Assembly (NCBI GenBank): GCA_037443945.1
Contig: JBBINH010000004.1
Span: forward strand, 64,976 to 128,975
Reading direction: 5' to 3'
Origin: Caldilineales bacterium
GTDB lineage: Bacteria; Chloroflexota; Anaerolineae; J102
Length of the DNA: 64,000 nt
In this document: positions 1-39,263 of the stretch, one piece after another
Numbering within the stretch: position 1 is the first letter of the stretch
Layout of the letters: the number at the start of each line of letters is the position of its first letter
Notes under the pieces: generated by a model
The model's database searches: none
Told to the model about the DNA's origin: nothing
The model's input: the letters and a program-made list of their open reading frames with translations, nothing else
Program-made: the position numbers and the translations under genes

Positions 1-927
1 TGGTGGCCCTTGAATCTGCACCGCTTCATCGCCAATATCGTCTTCGGCGGTTTCATCACCGGGCTGGTGGCCGCCTATATGTACCTGACGTCCAAGGACC
101 CCAAGGAGCGGGCCTTCTACGACTGGATGGGGTTCATCGGTAACCTCATCGGCACCGCGACCTTTATCATCCTTATCGCTCCGGGCTACATCTACGGCCG
201 GGAGATCTACGCCTACGACGCTTCCCTGGGCATCTACATGATGTCCGACCGCCTGTCCATGTTCTTCGAGATGCAGGGAATCCTGGTGGGGCTGCTTTTC
301 CTGGCCGCCAACTACTACATGTGGCTGAGCATCCGGCGGGTTGAGGGGAGCGAGCGGTTTGCGCTGCCCATGAAGCTAGGCTTTGCCCTGGTCTTTCTGG
401 GCAATGCCATCTGGGTGACTCCCCGCCATTTCTTCGCCACCATGATCCTCGAACCGGGAATGCTACCACCGGGCATGACCGAGGAGGCCTTTATCGCCCA
501 GATGGAGCTGCCGGCTCATCTGGGGTTTATGGCCCTTATGCCGTCTAAGAACACCGCGGCCGCTTGGACGGCTCTGGTCACCCTGATAAACTATGTGTTC
601 TACCGCATCGCCCTGCGACGGGGTCGGATCACGTGGGGGGAGATTGAGACACCTGCACAATATGCCCTGATTCTGCTGGCCTTCGCCGCCATTTGGACCA
701 TGGGACTGATGGGCGCGGTGCGCTCTCTCATCCGCAAGAGCTTCCACGTCTACAACGCCATCCCGGATCTGTCCGGCGAGGCCTTCACCCCCACCCTGGC
801 CCAGTCCACTCTGATCGTTACCGTTGTCTCTTTGATCTTCTTCCTGCTCATCACACTTATCATCTGGCTCAGCCACAAACTGGGTAAACCGGAGCGGAAA
901 GTTGTTCTGCAGGAGGTGCATGGATGA
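1..927 (+). CDS. Polytopic integral membrane protein, 5'-truncated at window edge (no stop upstream; frame continues to nt 1). Possibly a respiratory quinol-oxidase-type subunit; function uncertain.
   Basis: Open frame runs from nt 1. Multiple hydrophobic helices. 4-bp overlap with the downstream diheme cytochrome c gene suggests a co-translated respiratory module. Confidence 0.5.
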   Translation, partial: WWPLNLHRFIANIVFGGFITGLVAAYMYLTSKDPKERAFYDWMGFIGNLIGTATFIILIAPGYIYGREIYAYDASLGIYMMSDRLSMFFEMQGILVGLLFLAANYYMWLSIRRVEGSERFALPMKLGFALVFLGNAIWVTPRHFFATMILEPGMLPPGMTEEAFIAQMELPAHLGFMALMPSKNTAAAWTALVTLINYVFYRIALRRGRITWGEIETPAQYALILLAFAAIWTMGLMGAVRSLIRKSFHVYNAIPDLSGEAFTPTLAQSTLIVTVVSLIFFLLITLIIWLSHKLGKPERKVVLQEVHG

Positions 928-2132
928 CTCTTTGGCAGAATCTCCGTTGGAAACTGGTTGTGACCGCGGTGCTGGCCATTGTCGTTTATTTCGTCAGTGG
1001 CTTGATCGGTTTCCCAACCATCTTTCGTTTCTACTTCATGGGCTATGTGCTCATCGCCCTGCCCTTCTTCGTGTTCCTGGATCTACGCTTTGGCACCCAG
1101 GCGCGGCATGGCGGCCTGGCCATCCTGGCCGTATTCCTCATCGCCTCGGCGATCCTGGCCCTGGTCGGCCGGCTCTTGCCTCAGTACACCCCCGAAGTGG
1201 AACAGGAGAAAATCGCCCGTATCCAGCGCTCATTTCTGGATCGGCAGAAGCCGCAGCGCATCGAGGCCTTACGCCAGGAAGCAGAGGCGCTGGGGCTTGT
1301 GGTCGTCGAGCCGGGTCAGGTTGCCCAGGCGCCGGCCGGCGGTGAAGGCACCGCAGTAGCGCCGGGCTCCGGGGAGGGCACAGAAGCTGCCGCTCCCTCG
1401 CCCGAGCTCATCGAGCGCGGCAAGGTGGCCTACGATGACTGGGAGTGTTATAACTGTCACAAGATCGGCGGCAAAGGCGGTGTCAAACGACGCGGCCCCG
1501 AATTGGATAACATCGGCAACCTTATGTCGCCCGACGCCATCCGCATCAAGATCCTGCATCCCACCTTCTCGTTGTCCGAAGGGTTCGAGGAGGAGTACGA
1601 CAAGGTCACCATGCCCGATGACTACAATGAGCGGCTAAGCGACGAGGAGGTCACCGCTCTGGTGGCTTACCTCTCCTCCTTAACAGACACGACGGTCCAG
1701 ACCCCCAAACCCTTCTTTCCAGGCACCGTCAAGGAAGATCGAGGACCTTTCTACGAGATCCCCCTGGAGTATCAGAAAACCATGCCGCCCGGTTGGTGGA
1801 CCGATCCCAAGATCATCGAGGAAGGCAAGGCCATTTACGAGGGCCAGGTCTATCCCGATGTGGTGTGTGCGGCTTGTCACGGCCGGGACGGGGTTCCTAT
1901 CCTGACAGGGGCGGCCGATTTTCGCAATCCGGACTTGGTGGAGGGTTGGTCGGATGCCTTCTGGTACTGGCGCATTGCCAAAGGGGTGCCCGGCACGGCC
2001 ATGACCGCTTGGGAGGAGAAACTAACACCGGAAGAAATCTTCAAAGTCATGGCCTATGTGAACACCTTCGCCTATCAAGGCAAACCCACAGACCACCACG
2101 AGATGTTCTATCCCCCCAAGGCTCAGCGGTAA
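924..2132 (+). CDS. Membrane-anchored diheme c-type cytochrome (CcoP/FixP-like architecture: N-terminal TM helices + two class-I cytochrome c domains).
   Basis: Two CxxCH heme-binding motifs (CYNCH and CAACH). Second domain has a CcoP-like motif ...CAACHGRDG...AW...EI..V..YV. N-terminal ~90 aa is hydrophobic. Confidence 0.7.
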   Translation: MTLWQNLRWKLVVTAVLAIVVYFVSGLIGFPTIFRFYFMGYVLIALPFFVFLDLRFGTQARHGGLAILAVFLIASAILALVGRLLPQYTPEVEQEKIARIQRSFLDRQKPQRIEALRQEAEALGLVVVEPGQVAQAPAGGEGTAVAPGSGEGTEAAAPSPELIERGKVAYDDWECYNCHKIGGKGGVKRRGPELDNIGNLMSPDAIRIKILHPTFSLSEGFEEEYDKVTMPDDYNERLSDEEVTALVAYLSSLTDTTVQTPKPFFPGTVKEDRGPFYEIPLEYQKTMPPGWWTDPKIIEEGKAIYEGQVYPDVVCAACHGRDGVPILTGAADFRNPDLVEGWSDAFWYWRIAKGVPGTAMTAWEEKLTPEEIFKVMAYVNTFAYQGKPTDHHEMFYPPKAQR

Positions 2133-2134
2133 AG

Positions 2135-2785
2135 ATGCCCGATTTGGATGAGCTCCTGCGCGCTTCTGCCGCCTTACATCACCACCTGTGCCCCCGTCAG
2201 GTCCTGGGGGTGCGTATGGGGTTGCTGGGCGGTGACCGGCTAGGCCTCGAGGTGCCTCGCGCGGACAAACGGATCCTGGCCCTGGTCGAGACGGATGGCT
2301 GTGCCGCCGATGGGTTGGCCGTCGCCACCGGCTGTTGGGTGGGTCGGCGCACTTTGCGGGTTATCGATTTCGGCAAGGTAGCCGCCACCCTGGTCGATAC
2401 CCGCACCGGCCGCGCCGTGCGCGTGGCGCCCAGGGCCGGGATCCGGGAGCGGGCCCGGGCCTATGCGCCGGAAGCCCTCAATCGCTGGCAGGCGCAACTG
2501 TTGGGTTATCAGCGCATGCCCGAGGTGGAACTCCTGGTCGTCCAGGAAGTTCGTCTGCTCTTCTCCCTGGCGAAATTCTTGAGCAAGAACGGTTATCGGG
2601 TGAACTGTCAGATCTGCGGGGAGGAGATCATCAACGAACGGGAAGTGCGACGGGATGGGCTGACGGTGTGCCGCGCCTGCGCCGGCCAGCGTTACTATCA
2701 GCCGGTGGGCGAAGCTGAGGCTGCCCACCGGCTGCACCTGGAAGACCCGGTCGAGAGTCCAGGACCGATAGAAGTGCCGGTATAG
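2135..2785 (+). CDS. FmdE-family protein (formylmethanofuran dehydrogenase subunit E-like domain) with C-terminal CxxC...CxxC zinc ribbon.
   Basis: Motif HHHLCPRQVLGVRMG is typical of the FmdE domain. C-terminal NCQICGEE...CRAC zinc ribbon. ATG at 2135 lies 3 nt after the upstream stop; the longer ORF from 1793 is an in-frame upstream extension overlapping the previous gene. Confidence 0.6.
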   Translation: MPDLDELLRASAALHHHLCPRQVLGVRMGLLGGDRLGLEVPRADKRILALVETDGCAADGLAVATGCWVGRRTLRVIDFGKVAATLVDTRTGRAVRVAPRAGIRERARAYAPEALNRWQAQLLGYQRMPEVELLVVQEVRLLFSLAKFLSKNGYRVNCQICGEEIINEREVRRDGLTVCRACAGQRYYQPVGEAEAAHRLHLEDPVESPGPIEVPV

Positions 2786-2793
2786 GAGGGAGA

Positions 2794-3279
2794 ATGGTGA
2801 GATGGCTGCATGAACACGGTGAAGCTCGCCGGCGATGGATATTCGGAATGCTGGCCGTGGTGAGCGTTCTGATGCTCGCAGCTCAAGTATGGGCCACCCG
2901 AAAGGAGGCGTCGGCTCGCGAGTGGTCTGAGTTGTCCGAAGCGCGAGTTACACGAGAAGAAAAAGGAGCCGACGCCTCAGAGGGGGCGGTCTGCCGGTTC
3001 TCCGGACCGGCCCGGATGCAGCTGGCGCCGACCTCTCCCGGTACCCAAGTCGAAGCCTGGGTGGACGGAGAGAAGGTGGCCGAGACGGAGGTAGTCGGTC
3101 AGGGCGAGGAAAGCCTCTACTCCTTGATCCTAGACCGCCGCTACGCGGGCAAGACCGTGGTCTTCCGCTTTTCCGCTTATCCTCACCTCGGTGAGGCGGG
3201 ACGGGCCACCTGCGTGTTGGGTCAGGAGCAAGCCCTGACCCTGAGTGCCGAATCCCATCGCGGTTGTGGAGGTGGGTAG
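2794..3279 (+). CDS. Hypothetical signal-anchored protein.
   Basis: N-terminal hydrophobic segment (IFGMLAVVSVLMLAAQVWA). No recognisable catalytic motif. Tightly packed between the FmdE-like and Mrp genes. Confidence 0.4.
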   Translation: MVRWLHEHGEARRRWIFGMLAVVSVLMLAAQVWATRKEASAREWSELSEARVTREEKGADASEGAVCRFSGPARMQLAPTSPGTQVEAWVDGEKVAETEVVGQGEESLYSLILDRRYAGKTVVFRFSAYPHLGEAGRATCVLGQEQALTLSAESHRGCGGG

Positions 3280-4058
3280 TGAGTACCATCCGACACGCCA
3301 TCGCCGTAGCCAGCGGTAAGGGTGGTGTGGGCAAGAGCACCGTGGCGGTGAACCTAGCCGTGGCCCTGGCCGAGACCGGCGCCAAAGTGGGCCTGTTGGA
3401 CGGCGACATCTACGGCCCTTCCATCCCGGTGATGACGGGCTTGGCGGGACAGCATCCCCATTCACCCGACGGGGATCGGGTATTGCCGCTGATCAGTCAC
3501 GGGATCAAGTTGATGTCCATGGGCTTTCTCGTCGAGGAAGCCGAGTCCCTGGCCTTCCGGGGCCCTGTTGTCCACCAGGTGCTGCAGGAGTTCCTGCAAG
3601 ACGTAGAGTGGGACGACCTGGACTACCTGATCGTAGACCTGCCCCCCGGCACCGGCGATGCGGTGATCACCCTTATCCACTCCCTGCCTTTGAGCGGGGT
3701 CATCATCGTGAGTACTCCGCAGAACCTGGCCGTGGTCTCCGTCGTGCGTTGCGTGGCCCTGTTTCGGGAACGTGAAATCCCCATTCTGGGCGTCATCGAG
3801 AACATGAGCCAATCGATTTGCCCTCATTGCGGGGAGATACTCGACATCTTCGGTTCCGGGCACAAGGTCCGGGATATGTGCGCTTATTGGGAGATCCCGT
3901 TTTTGGGCGGTATACCCCTCGATCCGCGGGTGCGCGAGAGCGGGGACATGGGGATACCCGTAGTATTGCGCTTACCGAACTCCCCTGCGGGCCGGGCGCT
4001 GACGCGCATCGCCCAGACGTTAGAGGCCTGGCTCCCTATAGCCCACCGAGAGAGGTAA
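3279..4058 (+). CDS. Mrp/NBP35 (ApbC-like) family P-loop ATPase, Fe-S cluster carrier type (paralog 1).
   Basis: Deviant Walker A SGKGGVGKST and C-terminal CPHCG motif. GTG start preceded by GGAGGT. Confidence 0.8.
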   Translation: MSTIRHAIAVASGKGGVGKSTVAVNLAVALAETGAKVGLLDGDIYGPSIPVMTGLAGQHPHSPDGDRVLPLISHGIKLMSMGFLVEEAESLAFRGPVVHQVLQEFLQDVEWDDLDYLIVDLPPGTGDAVITLIHSLPLSGVIIVSTPQNLAVVSVVRCVALFREREIPILGVIENMSQSICPHCGEILDIFGSGHKVRDMCAYWEIPFLGGIPLDPRVRESGDMGIPVVLRLPNSPAGRALTRIAQTLEAWLPIAHRER

Positions 4059-4233
4059 CCAACCATGCCCACCGTCGGAATTCCCCTGCCGATGAGACCG
4101 ATCATGGCCTGCGGTTGTCTTGTCCGGTCAGGTGTTGGGCATTGACCCACCCGATCGGAAAAGCGTTTGTTGATAACTCCTACGACGGTTATAGCGTTGC
4201 GTTTATCCTGATTTTTTCGAAAAGGAGGCATTC

Positions 4234-6255
4234 ATGCTGAACATCCAAGTTCTCAACACCCATGTGTCCCAACGCCAGGGATTTGCATCGCAGAGCACCG
4301 TCCTGCCGGACACCTTCGTCCGCTGGCAGCTGGAAGCCCGGCACAAGATACATCAGGCCATCGCTAACGGCGGGCATCCCCGCCGGAACCCGGCCCACCT
4401 GCCGGTGATGATCACCTTCGAGGCCGAGGGCAGCTTTCCCATTCGCGTTGTCAGCAAGGGCGCCGGCTTCACCCCCCGAGACGAGAAGCTGCAGCCCTAC
4501 ATCGATCTGCTGGAAGAAACCATCGTCCGCTGCGAGGGCCGACCCTGGGAGGAGACCCTTTCCGACCGTGTGGCCGCCGTCCGGGCATTGCTCGATCATC
4601 CGGAGGACATCGATCTCCGCCGACTGGGCTTCTTGGAGATCTTCGGTAGCGGCACCTACCGCAACCTCCAACGCGACCCGCGCGTGGTGCTCCACTACAC
4701 CGGCGACGGCCCCGATTATCCCTCCTTCCAGATCAACGGCTATGTCGAGCTTTTGGATCAGGATGACCCCCGCTACCGCTACATCGCCCTGGCCCGCTTC
4801 ATTTTCGAGAGGGCACCCTTCCACCTGCCCCAGCCCGGTTACGCGGCCGGCTACCTGGTGTGGGTACACGAGGTCGCTGACAAGACGCCGTTCTCCCTAA
4901 TGACACAGCCCAACTTGTACAACATACCCCGCGCAACACCCAATCTGCAGCACGCAGTACGCAATACTCCCGCCGCCTCAGTGGAGCCGGCGCAAGAGGC
5001 TGTCACCTTAGCCGGTCCGGAGCAAGCAGACCCGCAGGAGGATGCGGTCACCTTTCGCGAGATATTGGTTCCCCTTGACAATTCCAAGTACAGCACCTGG
5101 GCCATGGAGATCGCACTCCAGATCGCCGGCGTGTACGGCTCCAAGGTCGTGGGCAACCACGTCTACGCCGCCCGCCTGCACGACAAACGTTTTCGCGATA
5201 TGGAACCGGGCCTACCCGAAGAGTACCAGGAACCGACCATCTTGGCCCACCAGCGGGAGCTGCATGACACGCTCATCGAGAAAGGGCTCAAGCTGATTTC
5301 CGACTCCTACCTGGAAGTTCTCAAAGCCCGGTGCCAGGAGGCCGGCCTGCGCTTCGAGGGCAAGACGCCTGAGGGCAAGAACTACGCCGAGTTGGTCCGG
5401 GACATTGAAACGAGCAGGTACGACCTGGTGGTGATGGGCGCGCGAGGCATGGGAGAAGTCTGGCGTCGAGGGAAGCGACGGGATCAGGTGCTGGGGAGCG
5501 TGTGTGAGCGCGTGGTGCGTCGGGTGAACCGTGACGTGCTGGTGGTGAAAGACGATCGCCCGCTGGGCGGTACCTTCGTGGTGGGGGTAGACGGCAGCGA
5601 TCGGGGCTTCGCCGCCCTGCGGGTGGCTCTGGCCCTGGCGGAGGCCACCGGCGCACGGGTGCAGGTGGTAGCCGTCTACGACCCCTTCCTGCACAAGGCG
5701 GTGTTCAACGAGCTGGAAGAGGTGCTGACCGAAGAGGCCAAACAGGTCTTCGACACCGAAGCCCAAAAGAAGCTCCACGACGAGTTGGTGGACAGCGGTA
5801 TCGCCCGGCTTTATGTGGAACACTTGCAGACGGCGCAACGCATCGCCGCAGAGTTGGGGGCGGAGATAGAGACACACCTGCTGGCAGGCAACCCGTATGC
5901 GGCCTTGTTGCGCCACATGGAAGAAGTGAAACCCACCCTGCTGCTCATTGGACGCACGGGGCTTCACGCCGACGAGCGCTTGGACATCGGCTCCAACGCC
6001 GAGAACCTGCTGCGGTTGGCTCCATGCCACGTGTTGCTGGTAGGGCGCATCTTCACCCCGACGTGGGCGGAAACGCGGCGGGTCGTTGAGGAAGGGCTGG
6101 CCTGGACACCCGAAGCGCTGGCGCGACTGGAGCGGGTGCCCGACTTCGTGCGGGGGATGGTGCGCAAGGCCATCGAGACCTACGCGCGGGAGCACGGGCT
6201 CGATGTGGTGACGGAAGAGACCGTCGTCGAAGCACGCCGGCGATTTGGCATGTGA
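4234..6255 (+). CDS. Multidomain protein: unknown N-terminal domain (~230 aa) + two universal stress protein (UspA) domains + C-terminal PCP_red (protochlorophyllide reductase BchB/ChlB C-terminal-type) domain.
   Basis: Usp-like blocks (ILVPLDNS...LVVMGARGMG...VLVVKD and FVVGVDGS...LLLIGRTG...HVLLVGR). C-terminus LAWTPEALARLERVPDFVRGMVRKAIETYAREHGLDVVTEETV matches the W(T)xEA..L..VP.FVRG.VR...E.YAR..G consensus of the BchB C-terminal domain. AAGGAGG RBS 5 nt upstream of ATG. Confidence 0.7.
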   Translation: MLNIQVLNTHVSQRQGFASQSTVLPDTFVRWQLEARHKIHQAIANGGHPRRNPAHLPVMITFEAEGSFPIRVVSKGAGFTPRDEKLQPYIDLLEETIVRCEGRPWEETLSDRVAAVRALLDHPEDIDLRRLGFLEIFGSGTYRNLQRDPRVVLHYTGDGPDYPSFQINGYVELLDQDDPRYRYIALARFIFERAPFHLPQPGYAAGYLVWVHEVADKTPFSLMTQPNLYNIPRATPNLQHAVRNTPAASVEPAQEAVTLAGPEQADPQEDAVTFREILVPLDNSKYSTWAMEIALQIAGVYGSKVVGNHVYAARLHDKRFRDMEPGLPEEYQEPTILAHQRELHDTLIEKGLKLISDSYLEVLKARCQEAGLRFEGKTPEGKNYAELVRDIETSRYDLVVMGARGMGEVWRRGKRRDQVLGSVCERVVRRVNRDVLVVKDDRPLGGTFVVGVDGSDRGFAALRVALALAEATGARVQVVAVYDPFLHKAVFNELEEVLTEEAKQVFDTEAQKKLHDELVDSGIARLYVEHLQTAQRIAAELGAEIETHLLAGNPYAALLRHMEEVKPTLLLIGRTGLHADERLDIGSNAENLLRLAPCHVLLVGRIFTPTWAETRRVVEEGLAWTPEALARLERVPDFVRGMVRKAIETYAREHGLDVVTEETVVEARRRFGM

Positions 6256-7133
6256 AAATGAAAACCTACCACGAGATCACCGGTGATGGCGGCTCGGACA
6301 TCCTGGGGCAGGTGAGGGCCCTGAAGGAACGGCTGGAGGCCCGCCTGAGCCGGATAGAAAACGTGATCGCCGTGATGAGCGGCAAAGGCGGTGTGGGCAA
6401 GAGCACGATCACCGCCAGCCTGGCGACCCTTCTCGCCGATCGGGGCTACACCGTCGGCGCGGTGGATGCCGATCTGAACGGCCCGGCTCTTGCCCGGATG
6501 CTGGGCGTGCACGGCCGGCAGGTGCGGCTCACCGCCGACGGCGTGGCGCCCGCCATCGGTGCGGCCGGCGTCCGCGTTATCTCCATGGACTTCTTCCTGC
6601 CTGACGAGGCTACCCCGGTCGCATGGAACCACCCCGGCGGGCTGGCGGCCGATACCACCGTCTGGCGCGGGACCATGGAGGCCACGGTGCTACGGGAGTT
6701 TCTGATGGACACTACCTGGGGGGAGTTGGACTTTCTCTTCCTGGACTTGCCTCCGGGGAGCGACCGTTTCGCCGCCGTGGCCGGCCTGCTGCCCCGGCTG
6801 GCGGGGGTAATCGTGGTCACCGTGCCCAGCCTGGTCTCCCAGGCGGTGGTGAAGAAAGCCATTACCGCCGCCCAGGAGCGGGGCGATCCCCTGCTGGGAG
6901 TGGTGGAAAACATGGCGGGCTATGTCTGCCCGGTCTGCGGCACGGTGAGCCCGCTGTTCCCCGGTGATGGGGTCCAGGAGATGGGGTTGCCACTGCTGGG
7001 CCGCATCCCCTTCGATCCACGCCTGGCGGAGGGGGCCGATGTCGGCCTACCTTTCGCCCTCACCCATCCCGATACGCCGGCTGCTCAAGCCCTGGCAGAA
7101 CTGACTACGGCCGTCGAAGGAGCGCTGTCATGA
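6252..7133 (+). CDS. Mrp/NBP35 (ApbC-like) family P-loop ATPase (paralog 2).
   Basis: SGKGGVGKST Walker A and CPVCG C-terminal motif. Start overlaps the stop of the upstream gene; the true start may be ATG at 6258. Confidence 0.8.
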   Translation: MKMKTYHEITGDGGSDILGQVRALKERLEARLSRIENVIAVMSGKGGVGKSTITASLATLLADRGYTVGAVDADLNGPALARMLGVHGRQVRLTADGVAPAIGAAGVRVISMDFFLPDEATPVAWNHPGGLAADTTVWRGTMEATVLREFLMDTTWGELDFLFLDLPPGSDRFAAVAGLLPRLAGVIVVTVPSLVSQAVVKKAITAAQERGDPLLGVVENMAGYVCPVCGTVSPLFPGDGVQEMGLPLLGRIPFDPRLAEGADVGLPFALTHPDTPAAQALAELTTAVEGALS

Positions 7134-7564
7134 AGTTCCTCTGTGTTCCCTGTGACGAACCCATGCAGGTGGTGGAAAGCGGTTCCCCGGATGAAACGGG
7201 GAGCTTGCGCGTTCTCTTCCGCTGTCCCCGTTGCGATCACACCACCGCCATGCTGACCAACGCCGGTGAGACGCAACTGGTGCGCTCCCTGGGGGTGCGT
7301 ATCGGTGGCAAGCCGGTGGATTCTGCGGGGCGACTGGAAAACCTGCGTGCCGGGTTGACCCGAATCCGGACCGATGCCCTGCAGACCGAGGAAGAAGCCG
7401 AACCGGTGTGGACGCCGGCAGCGCTCCAACGCCTGAACGCGACGCCCTCCTTCGTCCGGCCCATGATCCGCCAGGCCTACACCGACTATGCCCGGCAACA
7501 CGGCCTGCGCGAAATCACCCCGGAGGTGATGGATGCGGCCCGACAGGCGTTGGGGATGGGCTGA
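7130..7564 (+). CDS. Small protein: N-terminal Cys4 zinc ribbon + C-terminal PCP_red domain.
   Basis: CVPC...CPRC motif. C-terminus VWTPAALQRLNATPSFVRPMIRQAYTDYARQHGLREITPEV is a PCP_red domain. ATGA overlap with upstream Mrp stop indicates translational coupling. Confidence 0.65.
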   Translation: MKFLCVPCDEPMQVVESGSPDETGSLRVLFRCPRCDHTTAMLTNAGETQLVRSLGVRIGGKPVDSAGRLENLRAGLTRIRTDALQTEEEAEPVWTPAALQRLNATPSFVRPMIRQAYTDYARQHGLREITPEVMDAARQALGMG

Positions 7565-7641
7565 TCGAACGCACGTGATCCCGTCACCATAAGCGGTTCT
7601 TATCCGGGCACTCCACCTCGATGAGGAAGAAGTGACTCAGG

Positions 7642-8103
7642 ATGGAAGCCTCTTCGGAGAACAAAGGGTCTGCTTTGGAGGCGACCTTAGGGGCCCGACG
7701 GTTCCGCCAGGCCGGCTGGACGTACCTGCTGGCCGGTACGGCCGTCATCCTCTTCACCCTGACCGCTGGCCTGGTGCCTCCCAGCCGCCTGCCTCGTCTA
7801 TTCCTGCTGCTGCCCGGTCTCGGTTTCGTGATCCTGTTCGGCGCCCTTATCATCCTGGCCCCCCGGCTTTGGCGCCGGCCGTGGACGGTCGGCTTCAGCC
7901 GGTGGCTGGCGCGTCTGTTGGCCCTCACCAACGCCGGCCGAACCTGCCTTTTCCTCCTCAATGCTGCCGGACTCAACGTCCACGTTTTCCGCTCATCCGG
8001 ACCGGCTTTTTTCATGGTACGCACGGACCCGGAGCCGCTCTTCCTGGTCAACGCCGGCCTCACCGGTCTCATTGCGGTGATGCTGGCCCGCGCCGGCCGG
8101 TGA
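7642..8103 (+). CDS. Hypothetical integral membrane protein (about 4 TM helices).
   Basis: Hydrophobic segments throughout. Same strand, between the PCP_red protein and the radical SAM gene. Confidence 0.45.
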   Translation: MEASSENKGSALEATLGARRFRQAGWTYLLAGTAVILFTLTAGLVPPSRLPRLFLLLPGLGFVILFGALIILAPRLWRRPWTVGFSRWLARLLALTNAGRTCLFLLNAAGLNVHVFRSSGPAFFMVRTDPEPLFLVNAGLTGLIAVMLARAGR

Positions 8104-8143
8104 AGCCCTCTTCGTAAGCCCAAGAAGTCCGGGAGGTCGAGAA

Positions 8144-9448
8144 ATGCCACAGGACGATACGCACCATAGAACACGCAGTATGCGATTTACCCCCTCCATC
8201 ATCTCCTGGAACCTGACCCGGCTGTGCAACGAGCGCTGCCGGCACTGCTACCTGAACGCCGGCCCTTACGCCGACCGCTCCGACGAGTTCTCCACCGATG
8301 AGTGCCTAGAGGTGCTGGCCCAGCTCCGGGAGTTGGCGCCGGGAGCGTTGATCATCTTCACCGGTGGGGAGCCCCTGCTACGGGAGGACATCTACGACCT
8401 GGTGCGGGCGGCCCGTGAGGCGGGTTTCACCGTGGTGGTGGGTACCAACGGCATCCGCCTCACGCCGGAGCGGCTGGCCCGACTGCGGAAGGCCGGGGTG
8501 CAGGGGGTGGCCCTCAGCCTGGACTCGCTGCGCCCGGAAGTGCATGATGCCTTTCGAGGGCGACAAGGGGCATGGCAGGCGACCGTCGCCAGCATCGAAC
8601 ACCTGCGAGAGGATGGGCTGCCCTTCGTGCTCCAGACCACCGTCAGCCGTGCCAACTTGAAGGAGCTCCCCGACCTGGTGGCCTTCGCTGCCGCGAAGAA
8701 GGCACGCACCCACAACCTCTACTTTCTGGTCCCCACCGGCCGCGGTCAGACTTTCACCAGCGACATCACGCCCCACGAGTACGAGGCGTTGTTGCAGGAC
8801 ATCCGCCGCTGGCAGGAGGTCTACGCCGACCGCTTGCTTCTCTCGGCCAAGTGCGCGCCCCATTACCAGCGCGTGTTGTGGGAGTACGATCCCGATTCCC
8901 CCTACCTGCGCGCCTTCGACCAGGGGGCCGGCGGCTGCCCGGCGGCGATGCATTACCTGGGTATCCGCCCCAACGGCGATGTGACCCCTTGCCCTTACCT
9001 ACCGGTCTACGGCGGCAACCTGCGCCGGCAGTCTCTGGCGGCTATTTGGCACGAGTCGGAACTGTTCCGCCGCCTGCGGCAGCGCCACGCCTTGGCCGAC
9101 CGCTGCGGCGTCTGCGAGTTTCGCCTTCTGTGCGGGGGATGCCGGGCCCGCGCCTATGGTGTCACCGGAGATGTGATGGGGCCGGATCCCTGGTGTGAGT
9201 ACGAGCCGGGCGCCCGGGGCGGCCAATGGATCACCCCGGACGGAGCCGTAGCCTACGGCCTTGCCGTGGAGGGCGAGTTGACCTGGACACCGGAGGCGCA
9301 GCGGCTGCTGGAGGTTATCCCCTCCTTTGTGCGGGGACGCGTCCGGCACAGCGTAGAGGCTTACGCCCGTCAACATGCCTTATCCCTGGTCACCATCGAG
9401 GTGATGCAACAGGCCCGGAAGAAACGGGCCCTCCTGCCGGACTCATGA
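8144..9448 (+). CDS. Radical SAM enzyme with SPASM-type auxiliary cluster domain (AhbC/AhbD/NirJ-like) fused to a C-terminal PCP_red domain.
   Basis: CNERCRHCY radical SAM CxxxCxxC motif in a IISWNLTRLC context resembling tetrapyrrole-modifying rSAMs. Downstream Cys-rich SPASM region (CPAAMHY...CPYLP...CGVCEFRLLCGGCRARAY). C-terminus LTWTPEAQRLLEVIPSFVRGRVRHSVEAYARQHALSLVTIEV is a PCP_red domain. GGGAGG RBS 7 nt upstream of ATG 8144. Confidence 0.8.
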   Translation: MPQDDTHHRTRSMRFTPSIISWNLTRLCNERCRHCYLNAGPYADRSDEFSTDECLEVLAQLRELAPGALIIFTGGEPLLREDIYDLVRAAREAGFTVVVGTNGIRLTPERLARLRKAGVQGVALSLDSLRPEVHDAFRGRQGAWQATVASIEHLREDGLPFVLQTTVSRANLKELPDLVAFAAAKKARTHNLYFLVPTGRGQTFTSDITPHEYEALLQDIRRWQEVYADRLLLSAKCAPHYQRVLWEYDPDSPYLRAFDQGAGGCPAAMHYLGIRPNGDVTPCPYLPVYGGNLRRQSLAAIWHESELFRRLRQRHALADRCGVCEFRLLCGGCRARAYGVTGDVMGPDPWCEYEPGARGGQWITPDGAVAYGLAVEGELTWTPEAQRLLEVIPSFVRGRVRHSVEAYARQHALSLVTIEVMQQARKKRALLPDS

Positions 9449-9596
9449 ACAACAACTCGGCTCTTGGCTGCCATCTATCGACCCGGCTGCCCGCCCCTGA
9501 GCGCTGAGAGCACATCTGCCTCCTTCGCGAGGACACTCTATCGGCCAACCGTCGTTAGAGACGACCGGCATATGGCCTGACCGGCCTCCGACCTAT

Positions 9597-9628
9597 TTGA
9601 CAAAAGCCCAAATTGTGGTATCTATAAT
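9597..9628 (+). promoter_or_regulatory. Consensus-like sigma70 promoter (TTGACA ... TATAAT) in an AT-richer intergenic patch.
   Basis: TTGACA at 9597-9602. TATCTA (16-bp spacer, preceded by TGG) or TATAAT at 9623-9628 (20-bp spacer). No annotated + strand gene for ~460 nt downstream. Confidence 0.3.
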
Positions 9629-9697
9629 TGAGGGCACAACAACGGGACTCATACTACGCGCTACGAAGCCCTCACCGGACCCCCGGCGGCCCGCTTG

Positions 9698-9814
9698 GAC
9701 TCGGTTCTATCTTTTGTTGGTGAGAACGTTTGAACGTTAGAACGTTTGAACGTTAGAACGTTTGAACGTTATGCCTGCCTACCCCTCTTGCGCCAACACA
9801 CTCCGGAACCATCT
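9698..9814 (+). mobile_element. MITE-like nonautonomous element, copy 1 (about 117 bp), with imperfect right end and internal 8-bp tandem repeat.
   Basis: Left terminus GACTCGGTTC. Shares more than 90% of its sequence with copies at 31931-32024 (inverted) and 45307-45408. Flanked by CCCGCTTG on both sides (9690-9697 and ~9815-9822) consistent with an 8-bp TSD; the right TIR is degraded (GGAACCATCT instead of GGAACCGAGTC). Confidence 0.6.
9724..9771 (+). repeat. Tandem repeat (GAACGTTT/GAACGTTA)x6 inside MITE copy 1; copy number varies between MITE copies (6, 3 and 4 units).
   Basis: Perfect alternation gaacgttt gaacgtta x3 at 9724-9771. Same array with 3 units in copy 2 and 4 units in copy 3. 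AACGTT core is palindromic. Confidence 0.85.
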
Positions 9815-10091
9815 CCCCGCTTGCTTGATCGATCGGCATTGCCAACGTTATGTTACCGAGCGCGCGTTATGAAGACGGCAAAACCGAGAGCGGCCGGACG
9901 GCATTTCAGGCTCAGGCGCATCGGGCATGGTAGCATCACCCGGTCGCCCCTACCGCCTTACCGTTATGTTCATGGTCCAGACCGAGTTGGACCGATTCGG
10001 AAGACGTAGGTCTGGGATCTCGAATCGGTTTGGCGGTGGAAGAGGGGCCTACCGATCACCCAGATGCACTCCTGCAAGAGACACCGAGTTT

Positions 10092-12647
10092 ATGAAAAGC
10101 CTTTATCCCAAAATTATGCTGCTCGTCGGTGGTGCTTTTGCGGTCGTCATGACGGCTATTGTGGCCTTCGTCTACGTCTCAGGGAGCCGGCAGATCGAGC
10201 AAGAGGGGTTGGCACGGGCAGAAACCTTGAATCGCATGGCCTTCGAAGTCCTCTACGCCTCCATGCGCCAAGGAGGTGGTCGCGAGGGCAATCGCCGGGT
10301 CATCGCCCGGCTGCAGGAGACGGGAGCTTTCACCACCCTGCGGGTGGTGAAGGGCGAGCCGGTGGTCCGGCAGTTCGGTGCGGAGCCGGAGGAGTTACCT
10401 CGGGATGCGTTGGAGCGTCGCGCTCTGGCCGGCGAGGAAGTACGAGAGGTTCGCCGGGAAGGAGGCTATCGCATCGTACGCTACGTTACCCCCCTGCGGG
10501 TGCAGGTGGAATGCCAGCGCTGTCATCAGGCCCAGATCGGTGAGATCAACGGGGTGATCTCCACCGAGATTTCGTTGCAGGCCTACGAAAGCACCCTCCG
10601 GCAACGACGAGACGTGTTGCTCCTGACCCTAGGGGGCGGATTGCTGATTCTGGGTCTGCTGACCTTTTATGCCTTGCAGCGCCTGGTCATCCGTCCTTTG
10701 CAGACGATCCAACGAGGTGCCACGGCCATTGCCCAGGGGGCGCTCGACCACCGTCTGGAGGTGCGCACCGGTGACGAGCTCGAGGTCCTGGCCAGGGAGT
10801 TCAATACCATGGCCGCACGCTTGCAGGAATCCTACGTCGTTCTGGAACAGAAGGTGGCCGAGCGCACGCAGGAGCTGGTTGCCCTCAACCAAGTGGCCGA
10901 AGCCGTCAACCGTTCGTTGGACCTGAAGGAAACGTTGCCCGAGGTTCTGGAACAAGTGATGGCGCTGATAGGAGCGGAGGCAGCGGATATCCGAGTGATC
11001 GAGAACGGTACCTTGTGCGTGCGGACCAGCCGGGGGCTCTCTCCCGCCTTTCTGGAACAGGACGCTCGGGTGCCGGTGGGTCACTGCCTATGCGGTATGG
11101 CTGCACTGACGGGCCGCGCCATGATGGCCGAGGACCTGCACAGGGAGCACCCCGAAGCGGAGTGTTGCCTGGCGGCGGGATTTCGTTCCAGCCTCAGCGT
11201 ACCGGTGGCGGCCAAGGGGCAGATGGTGGGGGTGATCCACCTGGCCAGCTCCCAACCCTACGCCTTCAACGCTCGGCAAGAGGCCATCCTCACGGCAGTG
11301 GGTCAGCATGTCGGATTAGCCATCGAGAAAGTACGCCTCTACGAAGGGGAACGCTCGCAGCGTCAGGTGGCCGAGATTCTGCGTCGGGCATCCCAAACCT
11401 TGAGCGCCAGTCTGAATCTGGACACGGTCTTGCACACCCTTCTCGAACAACTGGGGCAGGTTCTGATCGTAGACGCGGGGCTTATCCTGCTTTGTGAGGG
11501 CGATCACCTGCGGGTGGCGGCGGTGCGTGGCCGGCCTGAACTGAGGATGGAACGGCTGTTGGGCTATCAAATCCCGTTGTCCGCCAATCGGGATTTCTAC
11601 CGGGTCATTCAGGAGAAACGCGTGCTGACTTTCTGTCAGCCCGGCCGACGGCCTCCCTTTGCCGATGGTTTCCAACCCATCGAAGAGGTCGATTGGTGTC
11701 TGGTAGTCCCGTTGTTGCGTGGGAGCGAAGTCATGGGGTTGCTGGCCGTGGAACAACTGAACCACTGTTACGACAAGGAAGAAGAACCTCAGATTGCCAT
11801 GGCCTTTGCCAACCATGCGGTCATGGCCATCGAAAACGCCCGCCTGTACGCCGAGATCAAGACGCTGAACGAGGAACTGGAGGCGCGGGTAGAACGCCGG
11901 ACGCAAGAGCTGAACGAGGCAAGGGAAGTTCTGGCACGCCAGGCGAAACAACTCCGCCACCTGCTGAACAAGACCATTCGTATCCAGGAAGAGGAACGGG
12001 ATCGCATCGCTCAGGACATCCACGACGGGATCTCCCAGTTGATTATGGGTGCCCTCTACGAAACCCAGGCCGCCAAGGTCTCTCTGGCGGAGCGCCCCGA
12101 AGTGGCGCGAAAAAAACTGCAGAGCGCCCAGGAGATCTTGAAACAGCTCAAAACGGAAATGCAGCGCATCATTTACGACCTACACCCCGCCGTGCTCAGC
12201 ACTTCCGGGCTGGTGCCGGCACTGGAGGCCTGGATCGCTGACTACCAGGTCCACACCGGAGTTTCCTGTGCTTTTACCATCTCCGGTTCGGTCCGGCGCC
12301 TGACACCTGAGCGAGAGCGAGCGGTATACCGTATTGTTCAGGAGGCGCTCCACAACATAGCCCAACACGCCCAGGCCCATCAAGCGTGGGTGATGCTGAC
12401 ATTCACCCCGGAAACGCTGCGTATCACTATTGATGACGATGGATGCGGCTTTGACCGCTTGGCGGTGCTGAACGACTCACGCAATCACCTGGGGCTGGTG
12501 AGCATGCAGGAACGCGCTCAGAGCATCGGCGGTGAGTTGGAAATCTATTCTCGGCCGGGATATGGCACCCGCATTCTCGTCCAGGTGCCGGCTAACGACC
12601 ATTCGGAAGGCGAGGGAAATGGAGCGGATTCGGATCCTTATTGCTGA
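10092..12647 (+). CDS. Sensor histidine kinase: TM anchor + HAMP + three GAF domains + HisKA_3 (NarL-type) dimerisation/phosphoacceptor + HATPase_c.
   Basis: HAMP-like segment after TM. H-box IAQDIHDGISQ. ATP-binding blocks (QEALHNIAQHA, DDDGCGFD, GLVSMQERA). Start chosen at ATG 10092 (MKSLYPK..., hydrophobic N-terminus). Confidence 0.8.
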   Translation: MKSLYPKIMLLVGGAFAVVMTAIVAFVYVSGSRQIEQEGLARAETLNRMAFEVLYASMRQGGGREGNRRVIARLQETGAFTTLRVVKGEPVVRQFGAEPEELPRDALERRALAGEEVREVRREGGYRIVRYVTPLRVQVECQRCHQAQIGEINGVISTEISLQAYESTLRQRRDVLLLTLGGGLLILGLLTFYALQRLVIRPLQTIQRGATAIAQGALDHRLEVRTGDELEVLAREFNTMAARLQESYVVLEQKVAERTQELVALNQVAEAVNRSLDLKETLPEVLEQVMALIGAEAADIRVIENGTLCVRTSRGLSPAFLEQDARVPVGHCLCGMAALTGRAMMAEDLHREHPEAECCLAAGFRSSLSVPVAAKGQMVGVIHLASSQPYAFNARQEAILTAVGQHVGLAIEKVRLYEGERSQRQVAEILRRASQTLSASLNLDTVLHTLLEQLGQVLIVDAGLILLCEGDHLRVAAVRGRPELRMERLLGYQIPLSANRDFYRVIQEKRVLTFCQPGRRPPFADGFQPIEEVDWCLVVPLLRGSEVMGLLAVEQLNHCYDKEEEPQIAMAFANHAVMAIENARLYAEIKTLNEELEARVERRTQELNEAREVLARQAKQLRHLLNKTIRIQEEERDRIAQDIHDGISQLIMGALYETQAAKVSLAERPEVARKKLQSAQEILKQLKTEMQRIIYDLHPAVLSTSGLVPALEAWIADYQVHTGVSCAFTISGSVRRLTPERERAVYRIVQEALHNIAQHAQAHQAWVMLTFTPETLRITIDDDGCGFDRLAVLNDSRNHLGLVSMQERAQSIGGELEIYSRPGYGTRILVQVPANDHSEGEGNGADSDPYC

Positions 12648-13260
12648 CGATCATCCTATTGTGCGCCAGGGTATTCGTAGCCTGCTGACCCAGTACGATG
12701 ACCTAGAGGTGGTCGGTGAGGCTGGCACCGGACCGGCCGTGCTGCAACAGGCGGCGCGGCTCAAACCGGATGTTATTCTGTTGGATGTACGCATGACCGG
12801 CGCCAACGGCATCGAAATCGCGCGCCAACTACGCCGGGAACACCCGGAAATCCGCATCATCATCCTGACCACGTACGATGATGAAAAGTATCTCTACGGG
12901 GCACTTCAGGTGGGTGCTCAAGCCTATCTCTTGAAAGATGTTTCCCTGGAGACGCTTCCCGCCGCGATCCGGGCAGTCTATCAGGGGGAACGGCTTCTGA
13001 GCCCCCTGTTGGTGGACAAAGTGTTGCGCGAATTTCAGAGCCTGGCCATCGAAAAGCTCCGCCGCGATGCCGGCTTGTCCGAGGAAGAGCTGCGCATCCT
13101 GCGGGCTATGGCCGAGGGCGCGAACAATAAAGAGATCGCCGAGGAGTTCTTCTGGAGCGAGGTGACCGTCAAGAAAAAGGTGCAGGAAATCCTGGTGAAG
13201 CTCAACGCCGAGAACCGCACCCAGGCCGTAGCCCAGGCCATTCGCCAGGGTTTGATCTAG
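12619..13260 (+). CDS. NarL/FixJ-family response regulator (REC + LuxR-type HTH).
   Basis: ILIADDHPIVRQG...LLDVRMTG receiver motifs. C-terminal LuxR HTH (NKEIAEEFFWSEVTVKKKV). Overlaps the 3' end of the kinase gene. Confidence 0.85.
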   Translation: MERIRILIADDHPIVRQGIRSLLTQYDDLEVVGEAGTGPAVLQQAARLKPDVILLDVRMTGANGIEIARQLRREHPEIRIIILTTYDDEKYLYGALQVGAQAYLLKDVSLETLPAAIRAVYQGERLLSPLLVDKVLREFQSLAIEKLRRDAGLSEEELRILRAMAEGANNKEIAEEFFWSEVTVKKKVQEILVKLNAENRTQAVAQAIRQGLI

Positions 13261-13562
13261 CCGATGGCCGATGACCAATAGGACCTGCCATCGGCAGCGT
13301 AAATTTCGCGGTGCGTACACGATATGCCAGGGGCCTGAGTCCTGTCGTCGGGGCGCCCGGGGACAGACTTTCGACTGCGCTTTCGTGCCCCACGACAAGG
13401 CCAAAGTAACCGCCTATCTGCCCTAGAGAAGGCTGATGAGTGAGGACGAGGGGCCGTTTTCCTGTGGAAAATGCCCCTAATCCGTCAGGAAAACGACGGA
13501 TCGGTCGGGTCGGTCACGGTGCCGTTCTGGTCTCCCGGCGAGACGTTCTCTCACCGAAACGC

Positions 13563-39261: not shown

Positions 39262-39263
39262 GG

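Follow-up and report, generated by a model that had tools for sequence, protein, structure and literature searches.

In DPOR (dark-operative protochlorophyllide oxidoreductase), the helix of the C-terminal PCP_red domain of the BchB/ChlB subunit covers the bound tetrapyrrole (PMC4071322). The radical S-adenosylmethionine (SAM) enzymes AhbD and NirJ act on haem-type propionate side chains (PMC7242693), and Murali et al. (bioRxiv 10.1101/2021.01.16.426971) described the OR-N family of bd-like oxidases, which lack a quinol site. Relatives of all three occur together in the DNA analysed here, a window of 64,000 nucleotides (nt) from a Chloroflexota genome (contig JBBINH010000004.1, positions 64,976 to 128,975). 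In its first 9448 nt, genes for three unrelated proteins that end in PCP_red, one of them an AhbD/NirJ2-like radical SAM enzyme, follow the genes for a predicted OR-N type oxidase. In our judgement, these PCP_red genes probably make up a conserved module that is accessory to respiratory terminal oxidases, as opposed to a reductase of the DPOR kind. Its core consists of a tandem universal stress protein (USP) fused to PCP_red and a radical SAM-SPASM-PCP_red enzyme, to which an Mrp ATPase and a Cys4 zinc-ribbon protein with PCP_red are often added. Conservation of the core extends over many phyla, and it is strongly linked to bd-like and aa3-type terminal-oxidase operons. The genes and domains of the cluster are as follows (lengths and positions within proteins in amino acids, aa).

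1–927, + strand: 3′ part (last 305 codons) of a 484-aa cytochrome bd-like oxidase subunit I, CydA-like, putatively OR-N type (PF01654; full gene at L001 5240–6694)
924–2132, + strand: membrane-anchored dihaem cytochrome c, 402 aa (PF00034, PF13442; CxxCH at aa 175 and 315)
2135–2785, + strand: FmdE-like protein with a C-terminal C4 zinc finger (PF02663, E 1.1e-28, 100.3 bits, cut-off 22.9; zf-dskA_traR, E 5.6e-6)
2794–3279, + strand: 161-aa protein of no known family, one N-terminal transmembrane segment predicted
3279–4058, + strand: Mrp/NBP35/ApbC-type P-loop ATPase 1, 259 aa (PF10609, E 1.8e-92; GKGGVGKS, CPHC)
4234–6255, + strand: 673-aa protein with a PNPOx-like split barrel, tandem ATP-type USP domains and PCP_red (Usp, E 2.2e-38; PCP_red, E 4.7e-18)
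4291–4908, + strand: PNPOx-like split beta-barrel domain, aa 20–225 of the 673-aa protein
5056–6048, + strand: tandem USP domains, aa ~275–605 of the 673-aa protein (Pfam Usp, two stretches)
6103–6237, + strand: PCP_red module 1, aa 624–668 of the 673-aa protein (PF08369, E 4.7e-18, 65.4 bits, profile positions 1–45 of 45)
6252–7133, + strand: Mrp/NBP35-type ATPase 2, 293 aa (GTG 6252) or 291 aa (ATG 6258) (PF10609, E 9.8e-68; CPVC)
7130–7564, + strand: Cys4 zinc-ribbon protein ending in PCP_red, 144 aa (PCP_red, E 4e-15)
7409–7543, + strand: PCP_red module 2, aa 94–138 of the 144-aa protein (PF08369, E 4e-15, 56.0 bits)
7642–8103, + strand: 153-aa membrane protein of no known family, ~3 hydrophobic segments predicted
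8144–9448, + strand: radical SAM-SPASM enzyme of the AhbD/NirJ2 clade ending in PCP_red, 434 aa (Radical_SAM, E 6.5e-31; SPASM, E 2.9e-11; PCP_red, E 1e-15)
9284–9418, + strand: PCP_red module 3, aa 381–425 of the 434-aa protein (PF08369, E 1e-15, 57.9 bits)

The original prediction had read a ten-gene cluster from the sequence, on one strand and with overlapping or near-abutting start and stop codons. The open reading frame (ORF) listing and a junction check agreed with this, as all ten ORFs of window 1–9448 lie on the + strand, but the first "gene" is only the 3′ part of the 484-aa Cyt_bd_oxida_I gene, cut by the window edge. The families named then (two Mrp proteins, a radical SAM/SPASM enzyme, an FmdE-like protein and a dihaem cytochrome c) were confirmed by Pfam, NCBIfam and sequence motifs. 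Adjacent ORFs overlap by 4 nt at 924/927, 6252/6255 (GTG start; the public annotation begins at ATG 6258) and 7130/7133 and by 1 nt at 3279 (downstream start GTG), and are separated by 2 nt at 2132/2135 and 8 nt at 2785/2794. Translational coupling is thus plausible for part of the cluster. Because the remaining gaps are wider (175 nt from 4058 to 4234, 77 nt before 7642 and 40 nt before 8144), one single transcript is not established from the gene layout. The signal of a promoter and terminator scan did not exceed shuffle expectation, and Rfam gave nothing in window 1–14000 at E ≤ 0.1.

By alignment, the window is 99.8% identical to contigs of two public Chloroflexota-type assemblies, L001 (GCA_037441015.1) and L002. 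In L001, the region 5′ of the window encodes a molybdopterin oxidoreductase, a four-cluster Fe-S subunit, a TorD/DmsD-like chaperone and a further dihaem cytochrome c, and cytochrome c genes flank the CydA-like gene on both sides. Since an upstream donor enzyme, a cytochrome c, the bd-like oxidase and a second cytochrome c precede the accessory genes, the ten genes form the tail of a respiratory operon, and window 1–9448 is the downstream part of a unit of ~15 genes. The nearest solved relatives of the upstream molybdoenzyme are formate dehydrogenase, polysulfide/thiosulfate-reductase-type enzymes and acetylene hydratase, and on this basis an assignment to the Nxr/Nar type was rejected.

Judged by their sequences, genes 1 and 2 are the enzyme itself, a putative quinol-site-less bd-like (OR-N type) oxidase subunit with its membrane-anchored dihaem cytochrome c. 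The 484-aa CydA-like protein matched PF01654 with 62.1 bits (cut-off 26.2), the match being confined to the first ~250 aa (it ends at ~aa 248). Its first ~160 aa could be aligned with Geobacillus CydA (5DOQ_A), and in this alignment His22 faces a CydA histidine that we take to be a ligand of the active-site haem. The protein has ~9 predicted transmembrane helices and no cysteine, and hence no haem c site. The partial CydA match, the conserved histidine, the lack of cysteines and the number of helices fit the OR-N family of Murali et al. As in that family, the N-terminal four-helix region and the conserved histidine are kept, and there is no haem c motif; the quinol-loop region appears to be missing, and the gene sits with a cytochrome c and an alternative electron-donor enzyme; the placement is at family level only. 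The 402-aa cytochrome c has three predicted N-terminal hydrophobic segments, and a cytochrome c gene comes after the CydA-like gene in many related loci. The PCP_red accessory genes appear to be unmentioned in the OR-N paper, the full text of which does not contain the term "radical SAM".

To survey the spread of the module, we scanned one genome per species, which gave at least 585 matching stretches confirmed by tblastn; 80 loci were kept with 10-kb flanks. An exhaustive HMMER search returned 234 clusters at 50% identity with E ≤ 1e-30. The kept loci include Nitrospirota (with Manganitrophaceae), Nitrospinota, Poribacteria, Methylomirabilota, Dormibacterota, Latescibacterota, Fibrobacterota, SAR324, Tectomicrobia, Rhodothermales, Rhodocyclales and Chloroflexota, among others. 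Neighbourhoods were compared in 84 non-redundant loci in two ways, by HMMs derived from the window proteins and by an unbiased clustering of all proteins against all. The AhbD-like radical SAM-SPASM-PCP_red gene was found near the USP-PCP_red gene in 53 of the 84 loci, usually as the next gene, an Mrp ATPase gene in 29 and an Mrp gene followed by the zinc-ribbon-PCP_red gene in 28. All four genes occurred together in 15 loci, from at least six phylum-level groups. A CydA-like gene lay within 10 kb in 20 of the 84 loci and the COX1 gene of an A-type haem-copper oxidase likewise in 20, with both present in two. Outside the Nitrospirota, 38 of 59 loci, from at least 10 phylum-level groups, had a bd-like or aa3-type terminal-oxidase gene within 10 kb; with a few oxidase genes per genome, we estimate the chance of finding one in a 20-kb stretch at a few per cent. 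The neighbourhood analysis thus recovered the co-occurrence of PCP_red, radical SAM and Mrp genes across phyla that the original prediction had asked about, but the FmdE, second Mrp, 161-aa and 153-aa genes proved to be lineage-specific.

The gene order of individual loci illustrates this association. In L003, a Chloroflexota locus at 46% identity, the order is cupredoxin, CydA-like protein, cytochrome c, USP-PCP_red, one Mrp, zinc-ribbon-PCP_red, radical SAM-PCP_red and CopC; from the CydA-like protein to radical SAM-PCP_red, this sequence of genes is shared with the window. The Fibrobacterota locus L005 holds a CydA-like gene, four cytochrome c genes, the radical SAM-PCP_red gene and a gene for a 1128-aa USP protein with several PCP_red copies. 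In the Poribacteria locus L058, a series of COX2, COX1, CtaA, CtaB, COX3, COX3, COX4 and SCO1 genes is followed by USP-PCP_red, Mrp, zinc-ribbon-PCP_red, CopD-like and radical SAM-PCP_red genes. The Acidobacteriota locus L088 carries an aa3 operon with CtaA and CtaB on the opposite strand, head-to-head with cytochrome c and USP-PCP_red genes; no radical SAM gene was present in the 5.6 kb downstream. In L087 and L089 (Ktedonobacteria type) and L064 (Dormibacterota), a five-repeat USP-PCP_red gene precedes genes for a CydA-like protein, a Rieske protein, cytochrome b and a second CydA-like protein. The module thus also lies near an oxidase in L005, L087, L088 and L089.

Two of these loci hold further genes of note. 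At L088 12309–14417, genes for a haem-oxygenase-like/CADD protein, a 94-aa PCP_red protein and an Mrp lie beside the aa3 operon and the USP-PCP_red gene. At L064 7631–9736, a gene for a large-subunit catalase with a Catalase_C domain, presumably of the HPII type that carries haem d, lies directly 5′ of the five-repeat USP-PCP_red gene and the two CydA-like genes.

The identification of the shared C-terminal segment of ~45 aa as PCP_red was upheld by the profile-HMM search. All three window modules cover the full 45-position profile and exceed the curated PF08369 cut-off of 32.5 bits, the lowest score being 56.0 bits and the highest 65.4 bits. They share 51–56% identity with each other and 36–49% with the C-termini of solved ChlB/BchB proteins and the stand-alone protein 2KRU; module 2 aligned with the ChlB C-terminus of 2XDQ_B at E 8.9e-7. 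The window modules match the same profile as the DPOR domain, but they are detached from any nitrogenase-like core, and within this system a protein may have up to five copies. Across loci, the fusion partners of PCP_red are USP, zinc-ribbon, radical SAM, PNPOx-like and rubredoxin-like domains, and other copies stand on their own or in tandem; it thus behaves as a shared binding or docking handle. Nuclear magnetic resonance structures of stand-alone PCP_red proteins of ~62 aa have been deposited as PDB 2KRU and 2L09, one of which is Asr4154 of Nostoc; a literature search found no paper on 2KRU, 2L09 or Asr4154.

The 673-aa protein represents the family that defines the loci. Its USP-USP-PCP_red core is 45–50% identical across many phyla, while the N-terminal domains vary and the number of PCP_red repeats ranges from one to five. 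An AlphaFold2 model resembled the tandem USPs Rv2623 (3CIS) and TTHA0350 (3AB8), and a fold search with the full-length model matched USPs only, among them TeaD and the USP-like C-terminal domains of KCC/NKCC-type cotransporters. The glycines of the USP nucleotide sites are invariant (G402, G405, G407 and G421; G573, G576 and G586), and ATP binding is predicted, as for Rv2623 and TTHA0350. In contrast to these proteins, the family has long helical inserts in both USP domains, in which many His, Met, Tyr and Arg residues are invariant, and the C-terminal PCP_red repeats. The N-terminal split barrel has the fold of flavin mononucleotide binders and of the haem binders HupZ, HutZ and KtzT.

Expression could be followed in the proteome of Nitrospira marina (PMC8115632, Data Set 3). 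There, near-consecutive identifiers, one of which was not found, belong to AhcY, MetK, a 699-aa UspA-family protein, a 460-aa radical SAM-SPASM protein and EngA, and this order and the near-equal protein lengths match the Nitrospirales locus L039. Spectral counts of the 699-aa USP were 112–132 under atmospheric O2 and 97–132 under low O2, similar to those of MetK; those of the radical SAM-SPASM protein were 38–44 and 18–32, respectively. Neither protein changed significantly with O2. The four oxygen-responsive N. marina USPs discussed in that study are short, two of them being 288 and 293 aa (PMC8115632). If the orthology holds, an aerobe makes the pair constitutively and in abundance, in contrast to stress-induced tandem USPs, which argues against a purely hypoxic back-up role; a hypoxia-specific function of the module was therefore rejected.

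The prediction that the radical SAM enzyme resembles the AhbD/NirJ group of tetrapyrrole side-chain enzymes was well founded. The core of the enzyme begins at ~aa 20, with the motif CNERCRHC (Cx3Cx2C) at aa 28, and is followed by SPASM. Its best NCBIfam matches were AhbD (TIGR04545) with 298.1 bits and NirJ2 with 288 bits, both full-length, compared with 144 bits for PqqE. Seven orthologues from other lineages gave the same ranking, with 288–329 bits for AhbD; over all eight lineages, AhbD and NirJ2 scored 288–347 bits versus ~140–160 bits for peptide-modifying SPASM families. The equivalog cut-offs of AhbD and NirJ2 are 500 bits each. As these models rank first and all scores stay below the cut-offs, the enzyme belongs to a distinct subfamily within the haem-propionate-remodelling clade. 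It also differs from AhbD, NirJ and NirJ2 in the additional C-terminal PCP_red and in its context: USP-PCP_red, and often Mrp and zinc-ribbon-PCP_red, are conserved together with it, beside terminal-oxidase operons and not beside ahb, nir or hem genes.

From these features we tentatively favour the hypothesis that the module is a cytoplasmic haem tailoring and hand-off system for terminal oxidases, although we would not put its chances as high as even. The radical SAM-PCP_red enzyme would perform AhbD/NirJ-type side-chain chemistry on an iron tetrapyrrole, converting coprohaem to haem b or making a related, possibly new, modification. Because PCP_red covers the bound tetrapyrrole in DPOR, it could act here as a shared tetrapyrrole lid or docking handle, with which enzyme, carrier and chaperone pass on one cargo or bind one partner. 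The abundant ATP-type USP protein, with its one to five PCP_red copies and, in the window, a flavin- or haem-type split barrel, might serve as carrier or gatekeeper towards the oxidase. By analogy with HypB/HypA, the Mrp and zinc-ribbon pair may supply the radical SAM enzyme, which would have three cluster sites, with Fe-S clusters or a metal. The invariant Cys4 of the zinc ribbon and the conserved Walker A and CxxC of Mrp count in favour of such a chaperone role.

Several observations weigh against this hypothesis. None of the 25 Nitrospirota loci had an oxidase gene within 10 kb, their neighbours being metK, ahcY and arg genes; many bd-like paralogues lie elsewhere in Nitrospira genomes (PMC8115632). 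The idea that the Nitrospirota loci are haem-biosynthesis operons was also discarded, the neighbours being argH/G/F/D, a desaturase gene, ahcY and metK, and no haem-biosynthesis gene (hemH, hemY, chdC or alike) adjoins the module in any annotated locus. Loci of the Ktedonobacteria and Dormibacterota type have USP-PCP_red beside an oxidase and no radical SAM gene within 10 kb. Other loci suggest copper or molybdenum, with CopC, CopD-like, SCO1 and cupredoxin genes, or ModABC and Moa genes in L006. The scores of the window enzyme (298 bits for AhbD, 288 for NirJ2) are well under the equivalog cut-offs, and PCP_red could be a purely protein-protein module. Furthermore, the orthology in N. marina was established by synteny and protein length, not by sequence, and the evidence so far comes from genomes and one proteome.

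One alternative is that the radical SAM-PCP_red enzyme is a plain oxygen-independent haem b synthase (AhbD) with PCP_red proteins as helpers, and that its adjacency to oxidases reflects haem demand. In this direction point the full-length AhbD and NirJ2 matches at the top of the list in all eight lineages, the housekeeping context in Nitrospirota and the fact that AhbD stands in for ChdC in some coproporphyrin-pathway organisms (PMC7242693; PMC13564367). Yet the scores are far below the cut-offs in every lineage, hem genes are not adjacent, and the N. marina enzyme is abundant in fully oxic cultures, with no increase under low O2. A plain AhbD would also leave unexplained the conserved USP protein of 400–900 aa, with up to five PCP_red copies, and the Mrp/zinc-ribbon pair. 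We consider this alternative rather doubtful.

Regulation or energy sensing could also account for the USP protein. The tandem USP would sense ATP or other nucleotides, dock via PCP_red on respiratory complexes or partners and tune the assembly or activity of the oxidase, without tetrapyrrole chemistry. USP domains are commonly nucleotide-binding regulatory subunits of membrane systems, as the fold matches to TeaD and the cotransporter domains recall, and USP-PCP_red is the most conserved member of the module and the one most often alone beside oxidase genes. In N. marina it is abundant, as would suit a stoichiometric partner, and two-component genes are often adjacent. However, such a role leaves the co-conserved AhbD-like enzyme and the Fe-S carrier pair, both with the same PCP_red, unaccounted for, and O2 limitation, to which the four short USPs of that data set respond, left the N. 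marina protein unaffected. Overall, this explanation appears to have a small chance of being correct.

The Mrp ATPases and the zinc-ribbon protein allow a third alternative. Both window ATPases resemble the Mrp/NBP35/ApbC Fe-S carriers in PF10609, the deviant Walker A motif GKGGVGKS and a CxxC motif; in the Mrp family at the module, at least 30 of 33 members keep Walker A and CxxC. In the zinc-ribbon-PCP_red family, all 28 of 28 members have the N-terminal MKFLCxxC and the second CPxC unchanged, and its gene directly follows an Mrp gene in 28 loci. HypB/HypA-, CooC- and UreG-type systems are NTPase/zinc-ribbon metallochaperone pairs, whose NTPases share their P-loop class with Mrp. The gene pair here would be analogous, in that a CxxC P-loop ATPase gene adjoins a gene for a small Cys4 zinc-ribbon protein with an invariant N-terminus, but the ATPase is a typical Mrp (PF10609) and its partner ends in PCP_red. 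The Mrp proteins matched the MrpORP model with 281 and 233 bits (cut-off 450), over positions 1–248 of 365 only (2–248 for Mrp1), and Mrp1 scored below the equivalog cut-offs of the MrpORP and ApbC models. Unlike in the MrpORP/ORP complex of Desulfovibrio, only the ATPase part is thus matched, and no ORP-, NifX- or NifB-type cofactor-binding domain was found by Pfam and NCBIfam among the ten cluster proteins.

The pair could accordingly be a HypB/HypA- or CooC-like metallochaperone in the trafficking of a metal cofactor (Cu, Mo or Fe-S), with PCP_red targeting metalloenzyme precursors and the radical SAM enzyme building or repairing a metal centre. Its P-loop class, the invariant cysteines and N-terminus of the zinc ribbon and the partial MrpORP matches are compatible with this, as are the CopC, CopD-like, SCO1 and cupredoxin neighbours and, at the window locus, the FmdE-like protein and the upstream molybdoenzyme. 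In L006 (CAZVLQ010000017.1, 1–22214), the PCP_red set comprises USP-PCP_red, a 71-aa PCP_red protein, radical SAM-PCP_red and a 318-aa protein with three PCP_red copies, interleaved with TOBE, ModABC, MoaA/C/D/E, MobB and MoCF genes, two cupredoxin genes and the gene for an arsenite-oxidase-like large subunit; no oxidase gene was found there within 10 kb. Against metal trafficking speak the copper and molybdenum contexts, which differ by lineage while the AhbD-like enzyme is constant, as well as the missing cofactor-binding domain and the confinement of the sub-cut-off MrpORP matches to the ATPase part. We regard it as unlikely.

A 498-aa protein of L006 was considered as a divergent CydA and rejected, since it has one hydrophobic segment, no CydA HMM match and an outer-membrane-barrel-like sequence. 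The CopD-like membrane proteins of 150–185 aa lie beside the radical SAM gene in 29 loci, mostly Nitrospirota and Poribacteria (L039 13546–14070, L058 16437–16892, L060 15257–15811 and 26 further loci). They share the motif HWLHLLSAxVWIGG, and their match to CopD is weak (27–29 bits, below the cut-off).

Most SPASM enzymes modify peptides, and PCP_red is a mobile fusion domain, as are the RRE domains of peptide maturases. The enzyme might therefore modify or cross-link a peptide or an oxidase subunit that PCP_red recognises in the manner of RRE/PqqD. This is very improbable: no conserved small precursor ORF adjoins the radical SAM gene across the annotated loci, the enzyme has no N-terminal RRE, and the maturase models scored 140–160 bits versus ~300 bits for AhbD and NirJ2.

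The minimal DPOR- or nitrogenase-like reductase of the original prediction, with an Mrp heterodimer in the role of BchL and the PCP_red proteins holding the tetrapyrrole, is hardly credible: PCP_red is genuine and the Mrp proteins are P-loop ATPases whose CxxC could bridge a 4Fe-4S cluster, but the idea fails because the ten proteins, like the stretches of the window annotated with Pfam (~12–33 and 33–57 kb), include neither an Oxidored_nitro protein (the BchN/BchB or NifD/NifK core) nor one of the NifH/BchL type, PCP_red is a lid without a redox centre of its own, and the radical SAM enzyme already supplies chemistry. Likewise, the Mrp proteins matched the BchL, NifH and CfbC models over the P-loop only (E 1e-5 to 4e-3), Mrp1 matched Fer4_NifH at aa 17–45 only (21.8 bits, cut-off 25), and in the HMM survey of 86 loci a second Mrp gene was restricted to the closest relatives L001, L002 and L008, the other loci carrying one or none. 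Of the broader proposal, a role in processing a tetrapyrrole or metallocofactor stays plausible, whereas its nitrogenase-like form is contradicted by the missing catalytic core.

Within haem tailoring and hand-off, a more specific possibility is that the PCP_red set makes or inserts a non-standard haem, side-chain-modified or chlorin-type (d-like), for the O2 site of OR-N and some A-type oxidases. We think this quite unlikely. If it were true, a cofactor-maturation pathway of the oxidases of Nitrospira, Nitrospina, Methylomirabilis and related organisms would have been identified, and PCP_red would be a tetrapyrrole lid of general use, either common to this system and DPOR or ancestral to the lid of DPOR.

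As the original prediction suspected, the architecture seems undescribed: full-text literature searches found no account of the system, and none relevant to it of PCP_red/PF08369, of bd-like oxidases with radical SAM and USP, or of a "haem d synthase". Every domain family is known, but no paper was found on USP, radical SAM and Mrp/zinc-ribbon proteins that form a PCP_red-tagged set linked with bd-like and aa3 oxidases. Bd-like enzymes of the OR-N family presumably serve as the terminal oxidases in nitrite oxidisers of global importance and in several little-studied phyla, and reviews describe them as uncharacterised. The helper set offers concrete candidates for their cofactors and assembly, and a route to their heterologous expression. 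The occurrence of the BchB C-terminal domain as a mobile module far outside chlorophyll synthesis bears on the origin of the substrate-capping element of DPOR. The findings are of interest mainly for bioenergetics and tetrapyrrole research.

The FmdE, second Mrp, 161-aa and 153-aa proteins are lineage-specific additions to the module. The additional Mrp of the window is ATPase 1 (3279–4058); ATPase 2 is the one whose partnership with the zinc-ribbon-PCP_red gene is conserved. Among the 86 loci, FmdE was present in L001, L002 and L007 only; its best solved relative is 2GVI, and 2GLZ and 3D00 are others. The link that had been drawn from the cluster to cytochrome c is real and extends to the bd-like oxidase. 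The 161-aa protein occurred in L001, L002 and L008 only and had no Pfam or NCBIfam match even at E 1. The 153-aa protein, likewise without a family match in Pfam or NCBIfam, recurred outside L001 only in L002 and L066. Its membership in the CopD-like family found beside the radical SAM gene in Nitrospirota and Poribacteria was rejected, as no similarity was detectable.

Downstream of the cluster lies a two-component pair, with coordinates derived from the alignment of the window to L001.

10092–12647, + strand: sensor histidine kinase with HAMP, three GAF, HisKA_3 and HATPase_c domains and a periplasmic CxxCH domain (Pfam)
12619–13260, + strand: NarL/GerE-type response regulator, 213 aa (Response_reg and GerE)

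The overall architecture of the pair resembles that of DosS/DosR. The periplasmic part of the kinase (window 10092–10800) contains CQRCH and gave weak matches, below the cut-off, to Tll0287-like (E 9e-4) and Mcp40H-20 (E 2e-4) domains; the kinase may be a haem c redox or gas sensor. It may regulate the cluster, to which it is linked by adjacency only. Two-component genes of differing types adjoin the module in L003, L006 and L088.

Between the radical SAM and kinase genes, ~125 extra bases (window 9698–9822) are absent from L001 and L002. This segment contains ~3.5 tandem copies of the 16-nt unit GAACGTTTGAACGTTA and is bounded by the short direct repeat CCGCTTG. A second haem-related radical SAM gene (26857–28032, + strand) encodes a 391-aa protein with Radical_SAM and HemN_C domains (HemW/HemN-like) and adjoins genes for a Ser/Thr kinase and an FHA-domain regulator. 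Further downstream (36092–41546, − strand), two large Peptidase_C25 (gingipain-like) genes, encoding 760 aa and ~704–716 aa, lie close together, with ABC-transporter ATPase and permease genes on the other side of the 760-aa gene.

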